Shown: positions 6,081 through 62,003 of the stretch, piece after piece | Layout of the letters: every line of letters begins with the position of its first letter | Numbering within the stretch: position 1 is the first letter of the stretch | Made by a program: the position numbers and the translations under genes | Notes under the pieces: model-generated | Seen by the model: only the letters and a program-made list of their open reading frames with translations | What the model was told of the DNA's origin: nothing | Databases searched by the model: none | Sequence record: ON645936.1 | Direction: 5' to 3' (one strand) | From: Escherichia phage N2 | DNA: 64,000 nt

Positions 6081-6124
6081 TTTATTCTCCAAGTTGTTTT
6101 TCTGTATCAGTAGTTGATATTGAT

Positions 6125-6153
6125 ATAGTACCATAATCAACTACTGATGTATA
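6125..6153 (-). promoter_or_regulatory. sigma70-type early promoter (weaker -35)
   Basis: minus strand TATACA-N17-TGgTACTAT with conserved leader. Confidence 0.4.
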
Positions 6154-6177
6154 TAGTTTTATGAAAAATTTTAAATT

Positions 6178-7295: not shown

Positions 7296-7796
7296 TTATC
7301 TCATTTCAATAAAATCTATGAGTTCAGCATGCGATTTGCGGAACATTACTTGGTGCCCGCCAATGATAACTTCATCTTCAGGAACTTCGTATACAGCGAG
7401 ATAAAATCCTTTAGAAGATAATTCTTCCCGCTCTTCTCGTGTGAACCATCTCATCATATCATATTCACTAGCGAAAGCAAAATGATAAAGAGCTATAAAC
7501 CATCCTGGAATATGATATTCTACTCCAACATAATCTTTCTTGAACTTAGTATTAATTACTATATTAGCGTTTTTAACTAATAGTTTATCTTCGTGTGGTA
7601 AAGGAATTCTTTTATTATTATCGCTATGATGCATAAAATTAGGTCTGTCATAACCTACGTGTACTAGCCACTCTTCGCTCCATGAATCTATTATACTCCT
7701 GTACGGCGTTATTTGAACACAAAGATTTCGACGTATTGTTATAGCATCTTCATAATTAAGAATACTAAAAGATGATTCAACACGATAAATTTTCAT
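7296..7796 (-). CDS. hypothetical protein
   Basis: start reassigned to ATG at 7796 with GAGGAT SD, downstream of promoter. Confidence 0.45.
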   Translation of the reverse strand: MKIYRVESSFSILNYEDAITIRRNLCVQITPYRSIIDSWSEEWLVHVGYDRPNFMHHSDNNKRIPLPHEDKLLVKNANIVINTKFKKDYVGVEYHIPGWFIALYHFAFASEYDMMRWFTREEREELSSKGFYLAVYEVPEDEVIIGGHQVMFRKSHAELIDFIEMR

Positions 7797-7823
7797 TTTA
7801 TTATCCTCAGTAGCTATGGTGTT

Positions 7824-7853
7824 ATAATACCACAACTAACCGAGGAAGTAAAC
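7824..7853 (-). promoter_or_regulatory. sigma70-type early promoter
   Basis: minus strand GTTTACT-N17-TGgTATTAT. Confidence 0.5.
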
Positions 7854-7859
7854 AACTTT

Positions 7860-18916: not shown

Positions 18917-19058
18917 TGAAAGCTTTAACTAATGCTTTATTAACTTCAGCATATTGAGTAGTAGCCCATTGAACGTCATCTTTCATCATTGTGATTTCTT
19001 TAGTAAACATGCTTTCATTCTTAAACCACCCCATAAAAACTACCTTTACCAATTCCAT
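18876..19058 (-). CDS. dmd: Dmd-like small protein (candidate antitoxin)
   Basis: 60 aa immediately upstream of gene 41, as T4 dmd; own promoter. Confidence 0.5.
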   Translation of the reverse strand: MELVKVVFMGWFKNESMFTKEITMMKDDVQWATTQYAEVNKALVKAFIDDKKVCEVDCRG

Positions 19059-19087
19059 AACAATCTCCCCATTTAACCAACAAGACT

Positions 19088-19117
19088 ACTATACCATAGT
19101 CTTGTCAGCTTGTAAAC
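19088..19117 (-). promoter_or_regulatory. sigma70-type early promoter upstream of dmd-like gene
   Basis: minus strand GTTTACA-N17-TGgTATAGT; overlaps gene 41 stop. Confidence 0.5.
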
Positions 19118-20544
19118 TAAAATTTTAATTCATTTGCCAAAGCATCTAACTGAGCTCGAGTCGATTCGTTTCTTTGATAGCGATTCTGTTCAGCCTGAAT
19201 CTGTTGTGAACCTGCTACCTCACTCACTTCAGTTGGAGTAGAATCTTGTTCAATTTCTACCCATTTCTGATTTCCTTTTTGAACACCCATCAAAAACTTA
19301 TTCCACTTATTCTTATCACCATATCGTGATTTGATTTGCTTAATGAGTTGTTGTTCAGCAGCTGCTAGCTCCTCGGTTTCAATGACCGCAAGCATAAAAT
19401 CAGCTGTTGCTGGAAGACCAGCAGATTCTGCGATATCACTCATGTTAACATCAGAAGAGTCCCAAGCTTGTTTACCAACCTGTGCTGCAGTCCAAAGAAC
19501 AGTTTCGGTTTCAACAGCCAGAGCACGCAATTCCTCTGCGATAGCTTTAACAGTTGTGTAACTATTTTCTGAATAAACTCTAATGCGGCAAGATTTACAA
19601 ATACCTAGATAGTCGACAATAATGATTGTTGGAACAAAATTCTTCTTGAGCTTCAATTCGTTTAAAAGTGATCGAAATGTATTAGCGTCTGCTCCACCAG
19701 TAGGATATTGCTTAACGATTAAACGACCAAGGGTAGATTTCTCACGCCATTTTTCCATTTTTCCTTTATATTCAGCGTAAGAAATATGTCCATCATCAAT
19801 ATCGTCAAGAGAAACATCGAGCATGTTAGCATCAATACGTTTAGCACAGACTTCTTCTGCCATTTCCATGGAGATATAAAGAACGTTATGACCAAGCTGC
19901 AAATAATCTGCTGCTAATGAACAAAGTCCTAATGATTTACCAACGTTAACGCCAGCCATTAAAACGTTCAGTGTTCCAGTCTCAGCTCCGCCTTTAGTAA
20001 TTTTGTTTAGAATTCTGAGTTTAAATGGAACCTTACGAGCTTTATTCATATAAGATAGCCAACGCGCTTCATAGTCATCCATCCAATCATGACCAACGTA
20101 GCTATCAAATGAAATTGATAATGCTTGGCGCATGATGTCAGGAATAGCACCTACATCTGGCATTTTCTTATTTCGTTTTTCCGGAGGAAGCTCAGCATTA
20201 GTTTGAATTTCGATTATTTTAGACGTAGCATTAAACATCGCCCTTTGCTGAACATATTTTTCTGTTTCTTTTACTAACCAGCTGTGGTCTTCCGGAGAAT
20301 CAGCCAGTTTTGAAATAAGTGTTTTTACACCAGAATATTCTGTTTCAGTAAATGAACTATTTTCTAATGCAACATTTAACGCATTAATAGATGGAACGCT
20401 ATGATACTCATTGACATGAGATTTAATTAATTTGAATGTATTTTTAGCTGGACCACTTTCAAAATATTCTGAATCCATATATGGCCAAACTTTTGAAAAA
20501 TAAGCTTGATCAAATATGAGATGAGAAAGAATAATTTCTACCAC
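19117..20544 (-). CDS. 41: replicative DNA helicase (DnaB-like)
   Basis: 475 aa; Walker A GVNVGKS. Confidence 0.9.
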   Translation of the reverse strand: MVEIILSHLIFDQAYFSKVWPYMDSEYFESGPAKNTFKLIKSHVNEYHSVPSINALNVALENSSFTETEYSGVKTLISKLADSPEDHSWLVKETEKYVQQRAMFNATSKIIEIQTNAELPPEKRNKKMPDVGAIPDIMRQALSISFDSYVGHDWMDDYEARWLSYMNKARKVPFKLRILNKITKGGAETGTLNVLMAGVNVGKSLGLCSLAADYLQLGHNVLYISMEMAEEVCAKRIDANMLDVSLDDIDDGHISYAEYKGKMEKWREKSTLGRLIVKQYPTGGADANTFRSLLNELKLKKNFVPTIIIVDYLGICKSCRIRVYSENSYTTVKAIAEELRALAVETETVLWTAAQVGKQAWDSSDVNMSDIAESAGLPATADFMLAVIETEELAAAEQQLIKQIKSRYGDKNKWNKFLMGVQKGNQKWVEIEQDSTPTEVSEVAGSQQIQAEQNRYQRNESTRAQLDALANELKF

Positions 20545-49590: not shown

Positions 49591-50244
49591 TTAAGATTTA
49601 AGTAAATCAACAATTTTAATTAACTTTTCACGCTCAGATTTAGCTTTACTACTCAATCCAGATAGTCTGAAAATTTCATCATCATATTGTTGAATAGAAA
49701 TATTCAGCTCTTCAATTTGCTTATTAAAATAATCAATTTGTTCAGAATGTTTTTCATTACTATGAACCGGTACAGGTTTTGTAGGCAATTTAGTTGAACT
49801 GGATTCATCCGGGCGATAAATTAAAATACAACTTGAACCAATCGGACATTTAGCACCAGACACATATTCTAATGTTCCGGCTTCTTTTAAAATTTCAAAA
49901 GCTAAACAGAGATGATGCCCCATATTAACATAATCTGTAGAGCGAGCTCTGACGTAATAATCATCTCCATGAGTACTAAATTTAAAGCATTTAAGGTCTT
50001 CTGTATTATTAGTTTTAAAAATCATTTGTTTATCTAGACCTTTAGCTAATCGAGCGCCCAATGCTAATAATCGTCGTTGATTTTCCCACAAATCTGCGAT
50101 CATTTGGTCAAATGATAATTTCGGCATTAGTCGACCATAAAGGTCATATCCTTTATTATAATTGCGAAGAATTTCACTCGCGTTAATGCGAGACAACGCT
50201 CCAATTTTATTAAGGGCTTTCATGATGCGATTAGATAAAAGCAT
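49591..50244 (-). CDS. hypothetical protein, apparently 5'-truncated by frameshift
   Basis: 217 aa from first ATG; frame stays open 63 codons upstream without a start. Confidence 0.5.
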   Translation of the reverse strand: MLLSNRIMKALNKIGALSRINASEILRNYNKGYDLYGRLMPKLSFDQMIADLWENQRRLLALGARLAKGLDKQMIFKTNNTEDLKCFKFSTHGDDYYVRARSTDYVNMGHHLCLAFEILKEAGTLEYVSGAKCPIGSSCILIYRPDESSSTKLPTKPVPVHSNEKHSEQIDYFNKQIEELNISIQQYDDEIFRLSGLSSKAKSEREKLIKIVDLLKS

Positions 50245-50413
50245 TCCAGACCCGTTTGTTCGTTGTAAATGTTTTTCTAATCCAAATCCAATATCAACTT
50301 TAAACTTATCTAAAATTTCGGCGTGAACATCTTTATCAATAACATTTAAATTTAGTACTGGGTTAAATTTATGAAAAAATTTATCTGACTCGTCGTGTTG
50401 AAGTACAGTCCAT

Positions 50414-50479
50414 TCATTTGATTTTTTTATTAACTAAAGATTTAATTACTGCATTGACATTATTAATTGCTACTGACAT
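50414..50479 (-). other. 21-codon N-terminal ORF fragment ending after A7 tract (50421..50427)
   Basis: ATG at 50479 (MSVAINNVNAVIKSLVNKK); removing one A joins it to 49591..50244. Confidence 0.5.
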
Positions 50480-50486
50480 ATTTTCC

Positions 50487-50894
50487 TCACTCAATTTCAA
50501 TTTTACTAAATACACAGAATATGATTGAACAGACTACATAAGCACCGCACACAGATTGAACTAATACCATCCCAAAGAACCAAACAATATTATCAAACAG
50601 TGTCTGTTTTACGTCGAAAGGACGTAAACTTACAGTAATATTATCACCTTTTTCTATTGAAGAATACATCTCTGGGGAAATATATTCACTAAATCTATAA
50701 CCGTCTTTGAGTTCATATACAGCAATAAACGATAAACTAGACCCTTTTCCTTGTGTTCCTGTGATAGTATTAACTACAGTAACATCATAATCTTTATAAT
50801 GCATATAATCATTAATTGCGTAATAACCGTATGCAATTGCTATACATAAACAACATATCAATAAATTCAATCTTTTAATTATCAACTGTTTCAT
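50487..50894 (-). CDS. membrane protein
   Basis: 135 aa with N- and C-terminal hydrophobic helices. Confidence 0.5.
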   Translation of the reverse strand: MKQLIIKRLNLLICCLCIAIAYGYYAINDYMHYKDYDVTVVNTITGTQGKGSSLSFIAVYELKDGYRFSEYISPEMYSSIEKGDNITVSLRPFDVKQTLFDNIVWFFGMVLVQSVCGAYVVCSIIFCVFSKIEIE

Positions 50895-50949
50895 AATAAT
50901 CTCAATTAAAAGGGCTTAGAACCATTATACCATCCTTGGTATAAAGCAG

Positions 50950-51477
50950 TTATGCGAGTACCGTCTTTAACCGTTCTTCAAACTTCCGAAGAGTATTTTG
51001 GCGTTCAGCTCTTTGCTTTTTGTAAGTTTCAATACGCTCTGAAATGAGAGTGTATCGTTCATTTACTGATTCTTTCATAAAATCAGGAATTTCACGAGAA
51101 GCTTTAATCTCATCAAATTTATCAATAACAGCTTGCTCTTCAGCAATTAAATTATCATACATTAAAATATCTTTCTTGATGAACTCAATATCTTCTTGAG
51201 TTACACGAGACATTTTAGATGCTTTATCCTTTTTGTAATGTTCGTTAGTATCACGAGACCAGTGTAATGTACGATTTTTATTCGTATTTTTGTAAATTTC
51301 TACAATACCAATCTCATCGATAATAACGATCCAATTCCAACGGGATTTGTAAATTTGTCCTCCATCAACCGTGATTTCACCTCCGATTGAGATGTCGTTA
51401 AAGAACTTGCTTTGTGCTTCAGATTTAAATTTACCATCGTTGTAATTTACCAAGTTGAAAATATCTTTAGCGTTCAT
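50950..51477 (-). CDS. hypothetical protein
   Basis: 175 aa; GGAGGAACAG SD; promoter 51506..51535. Confidence 0.5.
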   Translation of the reverse strand: MNAKDIFNLVNYNDGKFKSEAQSKFFNDISIGGEITVDGGQIYKSRWNWIVIIDEIGIVEIYKNTNKNRTLHWSRDTNEHYKKDKASKMSRVTQEDIEFIKKDILMYDNLIAEEQAVIDKFDEIKASREIPDFMKESVNERYTLISERIETYKKQRAERQNTLRKFEERLKTVLA

Positions 51478-51505
51478 TTTCTGTTCCTCCGTAGTTGATA
51501 GTTGT

Positions 51506-51535
51506 ATAGTACCACAGAGGAACAGTCTTGTAAAC
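51506..51535 (-). promoter_or_regulatory. sigma70-type early promoter with conserved leader
   Basis: minus strand GTTTACA-N17-TGgTACTAT. Confidence 0.5.
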
Positions 51536-51537
51536 CA

Positions 51538-51852
51538 CTAAAAGAAACTTCTTTCACAATTTTTTCCACTGAACCATGCGCTCACTGCTTTCTTAGTCTC
51601 AGGAGCAGTGTTATCCATAAACCATTCAAAGGCAGCCTTTTTATGATTCTGGAGGGCTTCTCGGGCTTTAATCTGCTCACGGTCTATTAACACTAACATA
51701 TGAGCCTTTCTTGTCACCATGGGCTTCTTATGATTTTTTGAATACTCCCAGTCATTTGTCCATCGCATTGTCGTTGCGAATTGAAATACAGCTTCTTTAA
51801 TCTTAGTTTCGTAAATTTCACGAGCCTTTGAGTATAACATCACTACCTCCAT
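51538..51852 (-). CDS. hypothetical protein
   Basis: 104-aa ORF. Confidence 0.45.
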   Translation of the reverse strand: MEVVMLYSKAREIYETKIKEAVFQFATTMRWTNDWEYSKNHKKPMVTRKAHMLVLIDREQIKAREALQNHKKAAFEWFMDNTAPETKKAVSAWFSGKNCERSFF

Positions 51853-51921
51853 TCACCAGTTTAATTCTAGTCATCTTTTTGATGGCAGTCCATATAATCT
51901 ATTTCTGAACTGCCTTTTGTC

Positions 51922-52641
51922 TTAGGATTCTTCTAAATGTCTTTTCTGAAAAGTTGATACCATACTACGATACGGTTCATTTGGATATCCGTGTTTTATA
52001 GCTTCCTTTGTAAATTTTCTCCATCCATATTTAGTTTCTTTCCAAAGCTCGAATAATTCATCTTCATACTGCCATATAGTTAAATGAGAACGCTTTGCAG
52101 CTTTAATTCCATTAATATGCTTTTCTTTTACTGCAGGATTGCTTAGTTTCTTTTTAATAATATTACTAACTTTTCTAACAAAAACTGGGTCCTTATATCG
52201 TTGCGAAGTTTTTATTGAAGTGTTTAATTTAGCTTCCGGCGTGGATGTAACCTCTTTCATCTTTTTCTTCATATGCTGTATATGATTAGGATTTTTCCAT
52301 AAATTTATAGAATGCTTTTTGCATTTTATCCTAGTTTCATCTGCAACCTTTCCTCCTTCACCCCCGTATGACAGGTTAACACAGTTTTTTCCATATTTCA
52401 ATTTACCTGCCATGATATATAATATTTCAGCTTGTACCATTTTATCATAATTATCAAAAACTTCTAAAACCGTTTTTGATAATATGTGGTCATTTGACAC
52501 TTTTACACGTTCTATATAATTTCCACTACCAACATACGAATCATTGATGTTATTAGTTATATGTCGACCATAATAGTATTTCTTAATACCTGTCTTTAAA
52601 TTTAATATTTCAGTTTTATAGATAGTAAAATATTTTTTCAT
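51922..52641 (-). CDS. GIY-YIG-like homing endonuclease
   Basis: 239 aa; FTIYKTEI...YYYGRH...YVGSG; basic C-terminus. Confidence 0.5.
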   Translation of the reverse strand: MKKYFTIYKTEILNLKTGIKKYYYGRHITNNINDSYVGSGNYIERVKVSNDHILSKTVLEVFDNYDKMVQAEILYIMAGKLKYGKNCVNLSYGGEGGKVADETRIKCKKHSINLWKNPNHIQHMKKKMKEVTSTPEAKLNTSIKTSQRYKDPVFVRKVSNIIKKKLSNPAVKEKHINGIKAAKRSHLTIWQYEDELFELWKETKYGWRKFTKEAIKHGYPNEPYRSMVSTFQKRHLEES

Positions 52642-53606
52642 TTTAATAATACCGTTTCAGCAATTTCTTCCCAATGATTTTTGTCGGTCATAATAAAGTC
52701 AGCAAGATAAAGAGCAGTACGCAGTGAAACATTGCGTAAACGATTAACATTGACTTTCATCCATGATAATGCTTTATAAGTTTCTTCATCAGAAAGACCG
52801 CGCTTTTGCATCATGTCGGTTGAAAGAATAACATCTTCAACCCTGACCATAATTTCTTCATTAGTGTGAACACCCAAATCCAAATAAACTGAGCGGGACA
52901 CTAATGCCTGTAAATGTGGAGCAAGTTTAGTACCACGGTCTAATTCGCGGTCAATGTCAACGTTTGTGATAAAAACAATCGTTCCTTTAAATTCAAACTC
53001 ACGCTCAATGCCTTTTTCTTCTAAGTAAGAAGATGCAGTGCTCCAGCAGACTTTACGGGTTTCTCCGGTGTCCAGAGCGGCTTTTAGAAGATTAAGAATG
53101 TCCATATCAGAGAAAACATCCACATCATCAATCAAAAGGACAGAATTCTCTTCACGATTATTCCAAAGCTGTTCATAAAGACCAATACCAGAGATTTTAC
53201 CATTAATGCTTTTATATTCAATGTATCCAATATCATTTGCTTTATTTAAAGCTTTATCTAAAGAATACGTTTTACCAATACCTGCTGCGCCAGAGATAAT
53301 TAATGAACGAATATTTCCATTAATAATACCGTTCGTCATCATTCCCATAACATTAAATCTTTTATTAATGCGGGTTTTCATATCTTCATATGATTCTTTA
53401 ACTTCTTCAACTTTTACACCATCATATGAAATATCTGATTTGTAAACCCAAACACCGCGACGTTTACCGTCAATTTCAACAAAAACTTTACCATCTCCTT
53501 GTGCATCTACCGGAGCATTATCTGGGAACCATTCGCCTAAGAGCTCAAAAGTTCCAGAGATTTCTTTACCAAAGTAGATACCCTTATTGATAGTTACAGT
53601 TTTCAT
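52638..53606 (-). CDS. P-loop AAA-type ATPase
   Basis: Walker A GAAGIGKT, Walker B LLIDDVD; start at ATG 53606 with GGAGAA SD. Confidence 0.6.
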   Translation of the reverse strand: MKTVTINKGIYFGKEISGTFELLGEWFPDNAPVDAQGDGKVFVEIDGKRRGVWVYKSDISYDGVKVEEVKESYEDMKTRINKRFNVMGMMTNGIINGNIRSLIISGAAGIGKTYSLDKALNKANDIGYIEYKSINGKISGIGLYEQLWNNREENSVLLIDDVDVFSDMDILNLLKAALDTGETRKVCWSTASSYLEEKGIEREFEFKGTIVFITNVDIDRELDRGTKLAPHLQALVSRSVYLDLGVHTNEEIMVRVEDVILSTDMMQKRGLSDEETYKALSWMKVNVNRLRNVSLRTALYLADFIMTDKNHWEEIAETVLLK

Positions 53607-53643
53607 TTTATTCTCCAAATCTGTATCAGTAGTTGATAGTTGT

Positions 53644-53673
53644 ATAGTACCATAAAGCTTTATGCTTGTAAAC
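53644..53673 (-). promoter_or_regulatory. sigma70-type early promoter with conserved leader
   Basis: minus strand TTTACA-N17-TGgTACTAT. Confidence 0.5.
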
Positions 53674-53700
53674 TGTTTTGTGAAAAAATTTTTGAAATAA

Positions 53701-53727
53701 AAAGGGGACCTTTAGGGCCCCTTTGTG
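53701..53727 (-). terminator. intrinsic terminator
   Basis: GGGGCCC-UAAA-GGUCCCC then UUUUUAUUU on minus RNA. Confidence 0.6.
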
Positions 53728-53732
53728 TTGAT

Positions 53733-54218
53733 TTATTCCATTTCTACTATATGCATGTTCTTTTTGCTATCAAAATATATGTTTTTAACTATTAACTCAG
53801 AATTAATTGGCAGTAAAAACTCTCTTTCATAATCTACCATACAAAGATTATCATAAAGCTTGTTAAGCTTATCATCGTCAGTTTGGCCAGATTCTTCAAT
53901 TGCGATTAAATTTTCTAAAATGTCAATCATGGCAGTCGAATAGTCGAAAACGTTTGCATTTTTTAACACTACTAAAACATTAGTCATATAGCGTTCTGCC
54001 GCAAACGTTTCAGCTATATGAGACTCACTGCTAAAGGAAGTTATTCTTTTAAATTTGATTCTCCTATTAACTTCAAACTTATAAGATAGCACTTCCTCTA
54101 TTGTAAGTCCTCTAAAAAGTATGTCTTTAATCTCAAGTTTGTCTTTAATGTAATCATTAACACGCTTATGATTAAAATCATTAATTTTGTTGCCAAGGCA
54201 TTGCATTAAAATATGCAT
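53733..54218 (-). CDS. hypothetical protein
   Basis: 161-aa ORF bracketed by promoter and terminator. Confidence 0.5.
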   Translation of the reverse strand: MHILMQCLGNKINDFNHKRVNDYIKDKLEIKDILFRGLTIEEVLSYKFEVNRRIKFKRITSFSSESHIAETFAAERYMTNVLVVLKNANVFDYSTAMIDILENLIAIEESGQTDDDKLNKLYDNLCMVDYEREFLLPINSELIVKNIYFDSKKNMHIVEME

Positions 54219-54264
54219 TGTATTCTCCTCAATTTTTAAAGAGCAATTAATTAACTACACATAT

Positions 54265-54294
54265 ATTATAATATGCTTTGTGATAGAAGTAAAC
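54265..54294 (-). promoter_or_regulatory. sigma70-type early promoter
   Basis: minus strand GTTTACT-N17-TATAAT. Confidence 0.5.
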
Positions 54295-54317
54295 AACTTT
54301 GTGACGTCATTTTAAAC

Positions 54318-54342
54318 AAAAAAAGGGAGCCCGAAGGCTCCC
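54318..54342 (-). terminator. intrinsic terminator after nucleotidyltransferase gene
   Basis: GGGAGCC-UUCG-GGCUCCC then UUUUUUUGUUU on minus RNA. Confidence 0.65.
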
Positions 54343-54344
54343 TA

Positions 54345-55358
54345 TCATTTATAATAACTTCGGTAGTTTTCAAGATAAACCCTCTCAAGGAAGTCATCCC
54401 AAAAACCCATGTCTACTTTTTGCTGCATACCGTTCTTAGAAGCTTCAATGGATGCTGCTTCTACTTGATCGACCACATCTTCCAAAAACTCTTGAACAGT
54501 TTTAAATGGGTGTTTACCCAGCTTCACGTCGAGAATAAATGGAGCGTCTTGAAGTGGATAAACCAAGTCACCAGTTTTGTAAATTTCCAATAGTTGGAGT
54601 CCACCACGACAAGCATGACTTAGAGCTTTCCAGTCAATGCCCTCATTCGCTTCAGCCTTACGAGCACGTTCGCCATATTCAGCATCAAGTTTATTCAAAG
54701 ACTGCTTAAGCTCAATAAGAGAAAGTGTTGTCTGATATTTACGACCCAACACGGTATAGAACATTTGCGGGCCTGTTTTCTCATGGTTATGGAATACCCA
54801 TTCACAGAACTCGTTTTCAGGGAGTCTGTGTTTGATATCTTCTACCTTAGTACGACGAAGTCTATCAGGGATTCCTTCTTGATAGTCGACCCACTGGTCA
54901 GGGATTTGATTAACTACTTTCAATACATCACGTAATGCGGCCAAACGAGAACCCTTGACACCGTATTTAGAAGCTTGCTTGCGGACATATCCTAAATAGG
55001 ATTTCATGTTAGTTGTATAAAACCGTGAACGATTGTCTTGGATAAATTTCCATACATCAGGCAAATCAGATTTAACCACTAGTTCAGGCGGAGTGTGAAG
55101 CATATCCAATGCTACAGTTTCACCATCTGCTGCTAATTTAAAGAAATACTTAAGACTGTACAGTTCATGGTCAATATCATCTTTGGTGTTTTTAGATGAT
55201 GTGTTGTTAGTGTTTTTACTCATATGCTCTTTAACATTTCCGATAAGAATATCGCGAGCAGGAGGAACAAAGATTTCTTTAAAATCTACATCAGATTCTG
55301 GAGTAGAAGTTCCATAAAGATGACTACCAAAATAGCTTTTCATTACTGTTTTCATCAT
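54345..55358 (-). CDS. pol-beta-superfamily nucleotidyltransferase-like protein
   Basis: 337 aa; N-terminal GSHLYGTSTPESDVDF (hG[GS]...DhD) motif. Confidence 0.55.
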   Translation of the reverse strand: MMKTVMKSYFGSHLYGTSTPESDVDFKEIFVPPARDILIGNVKEHMSKNTNNTSSKNTKDDIDHELYSLKYFFKLAADGETVALDMLHTPPELVVKSDLPDVWKFIQDNRSRFYTTNMKSYLGYVRKQASKYGVKGSRLAALRDVLKVVNQIPDQWVDYQEGIPDRLRRTKVEDIKHRLPENEFCEWVFHNHEKTGPQMFYTVLGRKYQTTLSLIELKQSLNKLDAEYGERARKAEANEGIDWKALSHACRGGLQLLEIYKTGDLVYPLQDAPFILDVKLGKHPFKTVQEFLEDVVDQVEAASIEASKNGMQQKVDMGFWDDFLERVYLENYRSYYK

Positions 55359-56904: not shown

Positions 56905-57039
56905 AATTACATACTCCTTTGAATAATATCAATAATGTTGTTCACTAGATTATAAGTAAACATTGGGTAATTATATTGAATCATCACATACACAGCAAAC
57001 AAAACTTTCATTCTCTTCTCCTTGGCAGTTGGCAAGATT

Positions 57040-57069
57040 ACTATACCATAACCTTGCCAACTTGTAAAC
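57040..57069 (-). promoter_or_regulatory. sigma70-type early promoter
   Basis: minus strand GTTTACA-N17-TGgTATAGT; -10 inside 10-bp inverted repeat. Confidence 0.5.
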
Positions 57070-57234
57070 CATTAAATGACGTTTTCAATAAAATTCTGGA
57101 GTTTTGTGTGAGCATCAACCATGATTTTCATTTCTTCCTTTGCGAAAGCTATGCCTCTTTCCCGAGAAGAACACTCATAGTCAGAAACTGCATTAGCATA
57201 TTCTTCAATTAGCTTCATTAAAAACATCTGCTTT

Positions 57235-61161: not shown

Positions 61162-61623
61162 TCATTGAGTTTTAATTACTGCTTTAGAAGCCTTTCCTGG
61201 TAAACGACGACTGTTGATAATTGCCATCCTACATTGAAGCGACGGGTCTTTGAACTTCGCATTAGGTTTACAAACTGTGAATCCAAGCCAAAGATTTCCA
61301 TCTGTGATTTCTAAACGTCCAGGGCGATATTCAACCCCATCAATAAAATCCTCGTCAATGTCAGGACGCGGAGGCATACTCAGGAATTCATTAACTTCTA
61401 AAACATGGTCTTTTATTTTGTGGAATAATTCAAAAACATATGTCTCATCAATCTCCCGTTGAATTGCACGATCAAGAAGATGCTGAGAATATTTTAGATG
61501 AAACGATGAGACCCCTGCTGCTTTTGATGCCTCACGAATCTCATTGTTAATTTGACGAAACTCCGACTCAAAGTGACGACGAAGCTTATTTCGACGGATA
61601 AAAACTTCTGTGTTGATAGTCAT
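61162..61623 (-). CDS. regB: endoribonuclease RegB
   Basis: 153 aa starting MTINTEVFIRRNKL; strong promoter upstream. Confidence 0.8.
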   Translation of the reverse strand: MTINTEVFIRRNKLRRHFESEFRQINNEIREASKAAGVSSFHLKYSQHLLDRAIQREIDETYVFELFHKIKDHVLEVNEFLSMPPRPDIDEDFIDGVEYRPGRLEITDGNLWLGFTVCKPNAKFKDPSLQCRMAIINSRRLPGKASKAVIKTQ

Positions 61624-61650
61624 GTTATTCTCCTCTTAACTGATAGAAAA

Positions 61651-61680
61651 ATTATACCACAGTCAAGAGGAAAAGTAAAC
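61651..61680 (-). promoter_or_regulatory. sigma70-type early promoter upstream of regB
   Basis: minus strand GTTTACT-N17-TGgTATAAT. Confidence 0.6.
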
Positions 61681-61682
61681 AG

Positions 61683-62003
61683 TTATTCTTTAAATCTAAT
61701 CAATTTATTCATAGACTTTGAAACTTCTGCACGAACCTCATGTAGGTTTTTAAGCTGTTCAAGACGTTGCTCATAGTAAGCAATTTCATCTTCTTCGAGA
61801 CAGTCCTGTGAATCTTCTTTAAGATAACGTGCGTAGTCCTGGAAAGCTTTACGGACTACTTCTTGGAAGTCATCAAGACTTTGAATTTTCTTAGGAGCAA
61901 CAGATACACGACGAGGGGCAGTATAATACTCATAACCAAACCCTGCGCTTAATTGAGCCATTAATATTTTTCCTCTGGTTGGAACACTGCGCGACAAGCC
62001 CAC
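61683..62003 (-). CDS. hypothetical protein
   Basis: 106-aa ORF. Confidence 0.45.

Follow-up and report, generated by a model that had tools for sequence, protein, structure and literature searches.

Several genes of bacteriophage T4 are preceded by an RNA helix that buries the Shine-Dalgarno sequence (SD) and/or the AUG in transcripts arriving from far upstream. The set comprises T4 e, soc, 49, I-TevI, I-TevII, I-TevIII and segB, together with mobE of Aeh1. The proximal promoter of these genes lies within the sequence of the 5' strand or the loop, so the 5' arm is missing from its own transcripts, which are translated. This masking of the ribosome-binding site (RBS) by a promoter-containing hairpin is a textbook T4 device, presented so far as a delay for late genes. 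According to reviews, every known case is a late gene with a late promoter (PMC2988022, PMC3014915); in the T4 set the internal promoter is of the late type TATAAATA and the gene is silenced early. In gene e, the structure cuts lysozyme synthesis approximately 100-fold (PMC3014915). Here we describe a hairpin with the same layout, and with a similar predicted burial of the SD, around an early promoter. It precedes the gene nrdC.8 in a stretch of 64,000 nucleotides from Escherichia phage N2 (ON645936.1), which was analysed as a whole and is called the window below; coordinates refer to the window unless a T4 position is indicated.

Two further T4-related systems resemble this locus. Promoter-early stem-loop cassettes (PeSLs) combine an early promoter, a stem-loop and, at the 3' end, an SD and start codon, and are repeated in hyperplastic early regions. 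In RB49 and phi1, the stem-loops are located between the -35 and -10 elements or over the -10 of early promoters and were read as attenuators, one of them being terminator-like in a lacZ assay (Arbiol et al. 2010, PMC2839356). PeSLs were extended to PST and T4 with the consensus TTTACW-N17-TAYWAT; there, the stem-loop is shown ahead of the promoter, and the ndd.4/.5 cassette is named as a site of exchange (Comeau et al. 2014, PMC4122927). Neither of these two studies mentions pairing between spacer and SD or a translational consequence. The other system is the RegB nuclease, a trans-acting enzyme that attacks exposed sites in T4 early mRNAs and shortens the period in which early proteins are made. 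Structure inhibits RegB, and the nuclease cleaves the GGAG of nrdC.8 'moderately' in T4 infection (PMC1702504).

The nrdC.8 promoter and its hairpin

The window is from a Tequatrovirus with 97% identity to T4, and 2.3 kb around the hairpin are 97-99% identical to Tequatrovirus genomes. The open reading frame (ORF) at 50950..51477 on the minus strand (175 aa, ATG at 51477..51475) is nrdC.8 by synteny with RB32 and T4, and the locus aligns with T4 NC_000866 53358-54108 at 97%. The original prediction had regarded a T4-like arrangement as being applied to an uncharacterised ORF. That ORF is a named T4 gene in a T4 relative, and its product has no Pfam match.

A promoter scan detected TTTACA-17-TACTAT with a TGn extended -10 at 51534..51506 of the minus strand. 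The -35 element GTTTACA occupies 51529..51535 (hexamer TTTACA 51534..51529) and follows the T4 early pattern; the extended -10, TGgTACTAT, occupies 51506..51514 (TGn 51514..51512; hexamer TACTAT 51511..51506). Nine copies of the pattern TTTAC-N15-17-TGGTAYWAT were found in the window, all on the minus strand, where 0.01 were expected; T4 has 23 copies, against 0.9 expected. The original T4 submission U76612 annotates -35/-10 signals at the homologous place, between nrdC.9 and nrdC.8, and labels neighbouring promoters 'early promoter 54.4' and 'early promoter 50.0'; U76612 marks no stem-loop at the nrdC.8 promoter. No late-promoter motif TATAAATA was detected on the minus strand between 56500 and 50900. 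Judged by its sequence, the nrdC.8 promoter is a strong T4-type early promoter of the sigma-70 type. Published T4 RNA-seq agrees with this: reads per nt climb from 1.6 in nrdC.10 to 2.3 in nrdC.9 and 3.9 in nrdC.8, and nrdC.8 is up 1.7-fold in motA-am infection, like early genes (PMC6024815 Table S1). The rise fits extra initiation before nrdC.8 added to read-through, the reads not being a 5'-end map.

The minus strand reads GTTTACAAGA-CTGTTCCTC-TGTGGTACTATACAACTATCAACTACG-GAGGAACAG-AAAATG. As originally predicted, the promoter spacer contains the 9-mer CTGTTCCTC (51525..51517), and the SD region of nrdC.8 contains the exact complement GAGGAACAG (51489..51481), after 27 intervening nt; in this region, GGAGG (51490..51486) is located 8 nt upstream of the ATG. 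The full repeat is longer, with two arms of 15 nt (51525..51511 and 51495..51481) and a loop of 15 nt, and as RNA it forms 13 Watson-Crick and 2 G.U pairs (-22.1 kcal/mol). The 5' arm CUGUUCCUCUGUGGU (51511..51525) is made of promoter spacer and the first base of the -10, and holds the anti-SD string CCUC. The loop (51496..51510) contains the remaining bases of the -10, the discriminator and the putative start, and the 3' arm ACUACGGAGGAACAG (51481..51495) contains the SD and the RegB motif GGAG (51490..51487).

Perfect 9-nt inverted repeats with a loop of 40 nt or less are not rare in themselves (38 in the window vs 16.4 +/- 3.9 in shuffles). The nrdC.8 hairpin ranks joint first for stability among the 12,791 overlapping 45-nt windows of the minus strand of the 64-kb window. 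For the 141-nt leader, the folding z is -3.4, and none of 200 shuffles was as stable. Complementarity between spacer and SD region reached E = -23.8, compared with -6.7 +/- 2.3 for shuffled spacers (z = -7.3, p <= 0.0003), and the corresponding duplex z ranges from -5.6 to -7.3 across Tequatrovirus. An intrinsic (Rho-independent) terminator was ruled out, since the stem is followed by AAAAUGAACG without a U tract; the terminator scan lists none there. Rfam gave no match at 51440-51580, and three sub-threshold chance matches elsewhere in 50000-54500.

From the geometry, we infer a start at about 51499 (A), 7 nt past the -10 and equivalent to about position 53907 of T4. Any start 5-9 nt past the -10 falls in the loop, as the -10 ends at 51506 and the arms end at 51511 and begin at 51495. 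Because this start lies between the arms, transcripts of the promoter should lack the 5' arm, which is present only in RNA initiated upstream. Folding of both leaders, the check suggested with the original prediction, separated the two RNA classes. With 60-300 nt of upstream sequence included, the probability of the SD being unpaired is 0.00 and opening of -13..+3 costs 18-21 kcal/mol. With a 5' end anywhere from 51505 to 51490, the probability is 0.73-0.77 and opening costs 0.5-1.3 kcal/mol. The prediction of a free RBS in the promoter's own transcripts was therefore reproduced, and so was the folding away of the RBS in read-through RNA, with a stem of 15 bp and not of 9 bp.

The same opening-energy computation was applied to 208 T4 gene starts, whose median is 4.8 kcal/mol. 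The early promoter-containing hairpin of regB ranks first (17.6 kcal/mol), and that of nrdC.8, at 15.7 kcal/mol in T4 and 18.5 kcal/mol in this window, ranks fourth. Next come two late promoter-containing hairpins, those of e (15.5 kcal/mol, rank 5, validated) and segB (15.5 kcal/mol, rank 6, implicated). The early-promoter hairpin of motB.2 follows at rank 9 (14.9 kcal/mol), ahead of the validated late-promoter hairpins of gene 49 (14.8 kcal/mol, rank 10) and I-TevI (14.2 kcal/mol, rank 11). Altogether, the top 11 opening energies include five of the early-promoter class and four of the classical late-promoter class. The value of nrdC.8 equals or exceeds those of e, segB, 49 and I-TevI, and on thermodynamic grounds its stem should be as effective as the structure of gene e.

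RNA carrying both arms most likely originates chiefly from the early promoter of nrdC.10 (53644..53672, minus strand), 2.1 kb away, which was identified by the promoter scan, the early pattern and U76612 ('early promoter 54.4' of T4). A further early promoter is located upstream at 54293. Between the nrdC.10 promoter and the nrdC.8 hairpin, from 53640 to 51540, the scan contains no strong terminator, and neither a late-promoter motif nor a strict MotA-box motif was found. In T4, RNA-seq reads over nrdC.9 appear to continue into nrdC.8 (PMC6024815 Table S1), and the middle promoter PmobD, further upstream (PMC2988021), could be an added, later source of read-through. The stop codon of nrdC.9 (51540..51538) is located 12 nt ahead of the 5' arm, so, by its footprint, a ribosome terminating there should leave the stem unmelted; translational coupling through such ribosomes was judged unlikely at this locus.

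Taking these predictions together, we think it reasonably probable that the hairpin limits nrdC.8 translation to transcripts of the gene's own early promoter. The promoter spacer would double as the 5' arm, with the SD region of nrdC.8 as the 3' arm. Initiation in the loop, at about 51499, would give a leader of approximately 22 nt with GGAGG free, and NrdC.8 would be made immediately after infection; the exposed GGAG of this short RNA would be open to RegB. Transcripts from upstream, here chiefly from the nrdC.10 promoter and in T4 also from terminator read-through and middle-mode transcription, would carry both arms. The 15-bp stem would form once the 3' arm is made, burying the SD, blocking 30S binding and leaving nrdC.8 silent. 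The masked GGAG should also resist RegB, because structure inhibits this nuclease. NrdC.8 synthesis would in this way be tied to its own early promoter alone, as a short immediate-early pulse, and the cassette would be insulated from its transcriptional context.

The resemblance to the T4 precedents noted in the original prediction thus holds for the architecture and not for the promoter, which is late in those precedents and early in nrdC.8. Neither the late promoter nor the late-gene character that defines the e/soc/49/I-TevI class was found at nrdC.8. As its promoter is early, the gene would be on first and the later or longer transcripts would be silent, a temporal logic different from that of the late genes: the late-gene hairpin delays expression, whereas the early-promoter hairpin would confine it to the gene's own promoter. 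nrdC.8 would be an early- instead of late-promoter variant of the known T4 mechanism, and overlaps the PeSL class; lists of T4 early promoters may contain an earlier remark on this hairpin. It matches the PeSL consensus (TTTACA-17-TACTAT, with TGn), and its SD and ATG lie 22 nt past the start; the window has 9 promoters of this kind, and T4 has 23-27. Its stem reaches from the spacer to +19, and the -10 lies in its loop. This placement resembles two RB49/phi1 subclasses, 'between -35 and -10' and 'overlapping -10', and departs from the upstream one given for PST/T4. PeSL stem-loops have been read as terminators or attenuators, whereas that of nrdC.8 lacks a U tract.

The relation to RegB is also one of likeness and difference. 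Both RegB sites and the nrdC.8 hairpin would shorten the period of early protein synthesis, but the hairpin would act in cis, concealing the site in one isoform. Cleavage of this site in T4 shows that a population with an accessible SD exists in vivo, and its moderate extent fits a mixture of open and closed isoforms. The 3' context of the GGAG in the window, GAACAGA, is partly A-rich and has a C; the site context GGAGGAACAGA has this C at position 8, compared with the consensus GGAGAAUAAAA.

Sister cassettes and related genera

The arrangement recurs in other cassettes. Ten of the 27 early-type promoters of T4 sit in strong, non-random inverted repeats between spacer and leader. The SD is covered in six of the 27 (motB.2, nrdC.8, regB, alt.-3, alc and ndd.4) and missed by the hairpin in four (dmd, mobD.2, ipI and cd.2). 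Leader lengths are alike in the two groups (21-25 nt and 22-25 nt, respectively), which rules out that a short leader forces SD overlap. Anti-SD tetramers are enriched in the spacers (8/21 vs 11.7% background, p = 0.0017).

In the window, the regB early cassette (61685..61616, minus strand) has a spacer, UUUUCCUCUUGACUGUGG, that pairs with CAGUUAAGAGGAGAA, including the regB SD, and the predicted cost of opening falls from 17.6 kcal/mol in the long leader to 1.7 kcal/mol in the short one. This SD is the site where RegB cuts its own mRNA (PMC3014915, PMC2988021). The motB.2 early cassette (7855..7786, minus strand) has a spacer, CUUCCUCGGUUAGUUGUGGU, pairing with ACCAUAGCUACUGAGGA over the SD (-23.7 kcal/mol), and ties with nrdC.8 as the most stable hairpin of the strand. 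The GGAU of motB.2 is a reported RegB site (PMC1702504), and its promoter is probably the much-studied T4 promoter P8.1. In T4, alc and alt.-3 have identical promoters (TTTACAAGTCCCTCGTGTTGTGTTATAGT) whose spacers pair with the SDs (z -5.6 and -6.3), and the ndd.4 cassette (TTTACAAGACTGTTCTTCCGTGGTACTAT...CTATGGAGGAACAGAAAATG) is a near copy of that of nrdC.8. The ndd.4 cassette keeps all 15 pairs, each of its three differing stem positions being a pairing-preserving transition. The duplicated cassettes of alc, alt.-3 and ndd.4 are located at T4 positions 123092, 136335 and 166806, and promoter-leader modules have evidently been duplicated around the T4 genome.

The annotated ATG of T4 ndd.4 (166764) falls within an SD-like string, CTATGGAGG. 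The more likely start is another ATG of the same frame (166749), which lies five codons further on and is ideally spaced from a GGAGG.

Comparison across genera gave a mixed picture. The 13 inner pairs do not vary within Tequatrovirus. Tequatrovirus, Mosigvirus and Dhakavirus share the -35 and -10 hexamers and differ in their spacers. In Dhakavirus, the spacer is a different one (AUCUCCAGUAG) and can pair, in another register, with an SD context that also differs (CUACUGGAGGU; z -5.0 to -5.9); the stretch ATCTCCAGTAG, directly after the -35, is complementary to the SD context CTACTGGAGGT, and IME08 has a G.U variant of this pairing. The Dhakavirus pairing, whose sequence cannot be aligned with that of Tequatrovirus, is an independent solution and the strongest comparative evidence. 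Mosigvirus shares its leader with Dhakavirus, and its spacer pairs with the -10/+1 region. The Mosigvirus SD is still predicted to be masked (probability of being unpaired 0.03), by a weaker outer stem, rich in G.U pairs, in which the end of nrdC.9 takes part. As the stop codon is part of this predicted partner, ribosomes that terminate at nrdC.9 could provide coupling in Mosigvirus. In Gaprivervirus, nrdC.8 has a different upstream region with a weaker-matching, TGTACA-17-TATAAT-like site, a hairpin around the -10 and a largely free SD (probability of being unpaired 0.3-0.5). IMG/VR contributed eight loci only, with no added diversity.

Several of these results weigh against a restriction of nrdC.8 translation to its own transcripts. 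The spacers of Mosigvirus and Gaprivervirus are not complementary to the SD (z about 0), so the spacer-SD pairing, as far as these genomes indicate, is recurrent yet dispensable. The two outermost pairs, intact in the window, are broken in T4 and RB32. Among the alignable sequences there are ten invariant pairs, three one-sided changes and no double-sided compensatory change, a count that the shuffle control reproduced identically and that is therefore uninformative. Masked SDs are found in 33% of promoter-proximal genes compared with 16% of other T4 genes, a marginal excess (Fisher p = 0.064, Mann-Whitney U p = 0.19). Swapping promoter halves among the nine cassettes of the window gave no advantage to cognate over non-cognate combinations (p = 0.24), because the anti-SD arm is generic and would mask any GAGG. 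Promoter-embracing hairpins that miss the SD may point to another shared function. Finally, the expected feeder is itself an early promoter, so both RNA classes should appear within about 1 min of each other, and a purely temporal rationale is weak. With another early promoter as the main feeder, dose control or insulation is more convincing than timing alone.

Two broader ideas were dropped on these grounds. Arm-by-arm co-evolution within the window did not survive the swap test, and the proposal that all T4 early promoters behave in this way was rejected, considering the marginal excess and the lack of complementarity in most spacers; the pairing marks a subclass.

Whether this subclass is a functional class is a further question, to which we give a tentative answer, somewhat short of an even chance. 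The class, unrecognised so far, would have at least six members in T4 (regB, alc, alt.-3, motB.2, nrdC.8 and ndd.4), in which the spacer has been recruited as an anti-SD arm and translation occurs from the gene's own promoter only, insulating mobile, PeSL-type cassettes. In combination with RegB cleavage, this would confine the synthesis of proteins such as RegB and Alc to sharp immediate-early pulses, and by predicted strength the class would be as prominent in T4 as the late class. If this is true, the textbook device is also used in reverse, confining translation to the gene's own immediate-early promoter, and promoter-gene cassettes would behave alike wherever recombination puts them. The promoter spacer, usually treated as free sequence, could then be under selection for a role at the RNA level, and the partial cutting of some RegB sites would be explained. 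The gain is moderate, as the principle is known and the spacer-SD pairing is lacking in two related genera.

Alternative roles of the inverted repeat

The best-surviving alternative, which we nevertheless consider unlikely, is that the repeat is a generic PeSL-type stem-loop and SD masking a side effect. Such a stem-loop could attenuate or insulate from upstream transcription, stabilise the 3' end of processed upstream mRNA or provide homology for shuffling. The terminator-like lacZ activity of one RB49/phi1 stem-loop (PMC2839356) is in line with this, as are the shared promoter consensus of PST/T4 and the exchange point at ndd.4/.5 (PMC4122927). The other very stable hairpins of the minus strand are mostly promoter-embracing, at 7845 (motB.2), 61675 (regB), 57070, 19115 and 6150, and the last three miss the SD. 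In these three hairpins of early-type promoters (57080..57011, 19125..19056 and 6160..6091, minus strand; -20 to -24 kcal/mol), the spacer forms the 5' arm, the -10 lies in the loop and the 3' arm consists of the first transcribed bases. They are as strong as the nrdC.8 hairpin, as are those of T4 dmd, mobD.2, ipI and cd.2, and Mosigvirus and Gaprivervirus likewise keep a hairpin around the -10 without spacer-SD pairing. At nrdC.8, however, the missing U tract, the empty terminator scan after the stem, and T4 RNA-seq coverage that climbs across the site without a fall speak against it. Coverage of the SD is not forced by leader length, and 18-21 kcal/mol over the SD should block initiation anyway, as in gene e. 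This alternative therefore concerns the purpose of the hairpin more than its effect.

Two side observations concern the SD-missing hairpins of the window: they would form only in read-through RNA, and the one at 57080 has a GGAG SD a few nt past its stem.

An improbable alternative is that the hairpin serves as a shield against RegB. It would protect the GGAG in read-through RNA, sparing polycistronic RNA for downstream genes, and the short RNA alone would be inactivated. The nrdC.8 site is cut just 'moderately', as an open/closed mixture would be, and other SD-masked cassettes are RegB targets (the SD of regB itself and motB.2). Moderate cleavage is explained equally well, however, by the imperfect 3' context (GGAGGAACAGA vs GGAGAAUAAAA). 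Downstream genes, moreover, already have a promoter of their own: directly after the nrdC.8 stop codon lies a MotA-box middle promoter, TGCTTTA-12-TATAAT (50924..50948, minus strand), which corresponds to T4 PnrdC.7, starting at T4 position 53325 (PMC2988021 Table 1). Going by this motif, middle-mode expression restarts just downstream of nrdC.8. Shielding is in any case compatible with limiting translation to the gene's own transcripts, and the two are not exclusive.

We have strong doubts about a third alternative, in which the inverted repeat has no function and is a historical accident of cassette duplication or shuffling, CCTC in a pyrimidine-rich spacer pairing with any SD. About 16 inverted repeats of 9 nt are expected by chance per window, the anti-SD arm is generic, and one cassette has evidently been copied to give those of nrdC.8 and ndd.4; no pair covaries on both sides, and the pairing is missing in two genera. 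Chance alone would hardly give a full stem that is joint most stable on the strand, or the z of -7.3 against spacer shuffles. The same pairing is produced by an unrelated pair of arms in Dhakavirus and is shared by at least three unrelated T4 cassette families (regB, motB.2 and alc/alt.-3), and the enrichment of anti-SD tetramers given above also speaks against an accident.

A role at the DNA level, with the repeat around the -10 and start acting by cruciform or hairpin extrusion or as a protein-binding palindrome on promoter opening or recombination, is highly improbable: repeats do bracket the -10 and +1 at many early promoters and PeSLs are implicated in recombination (PMC4122927, PMC2839356), but that recombination is explained by cassette homology and not by the hairpin, and the 15-nt loop and G.T mismatches disfavour a cruciform, 2 of the 15 pairs being wobbles that exist at the RNA level only.

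The nrdC.8 product and neighbouring genes

NrdC.8 is 97-99% identical to the T4 and RB32 proteins and belongs to PHROG 2274, labelled 'unknown function'. Homologues were found only in Tequatrovirus (~97% identity), Mosigvirus (~83%), and Dhakavirus and Gaprivervirus (~68%). Many GenBank phage records label NrdC.8 and its neighbours as 'thioredoxin' or 'ribonucleotide reductase', and a 2026 paper handles nrdC.8 as a nucleotide reductase (PMC13275509). Neither Pfam nor PHROGs supports such an assignment, which we rejected; these labels appear to be a transfer of the name from the neighbouring nrdC gene.

Upstream of nrdC.8, the minus strand encodes nrdC.9 (DUF7203; 51538..51852) and nrdC.10 (52638..53618), both assigned by synteny with RB32 and T4. 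Between them lies a seg-like GIY-YIG homing-endonuclease gene (51922..52641, minus strand) that is present in RB32 and many relatives and missing from T4; it had no Pfam match at E <= 0.01. This gene shares 4 nt with the stop codon of nrdC.10 and makes the read-through route into nrdC.8 longer. For nrdC.10, the mechanical ORF list uses a TTG (53618) as the start. The ATG at 53606, behind TTGGAGAAT, agrees with the T4 annotation (325 aa) and is likely the true start.

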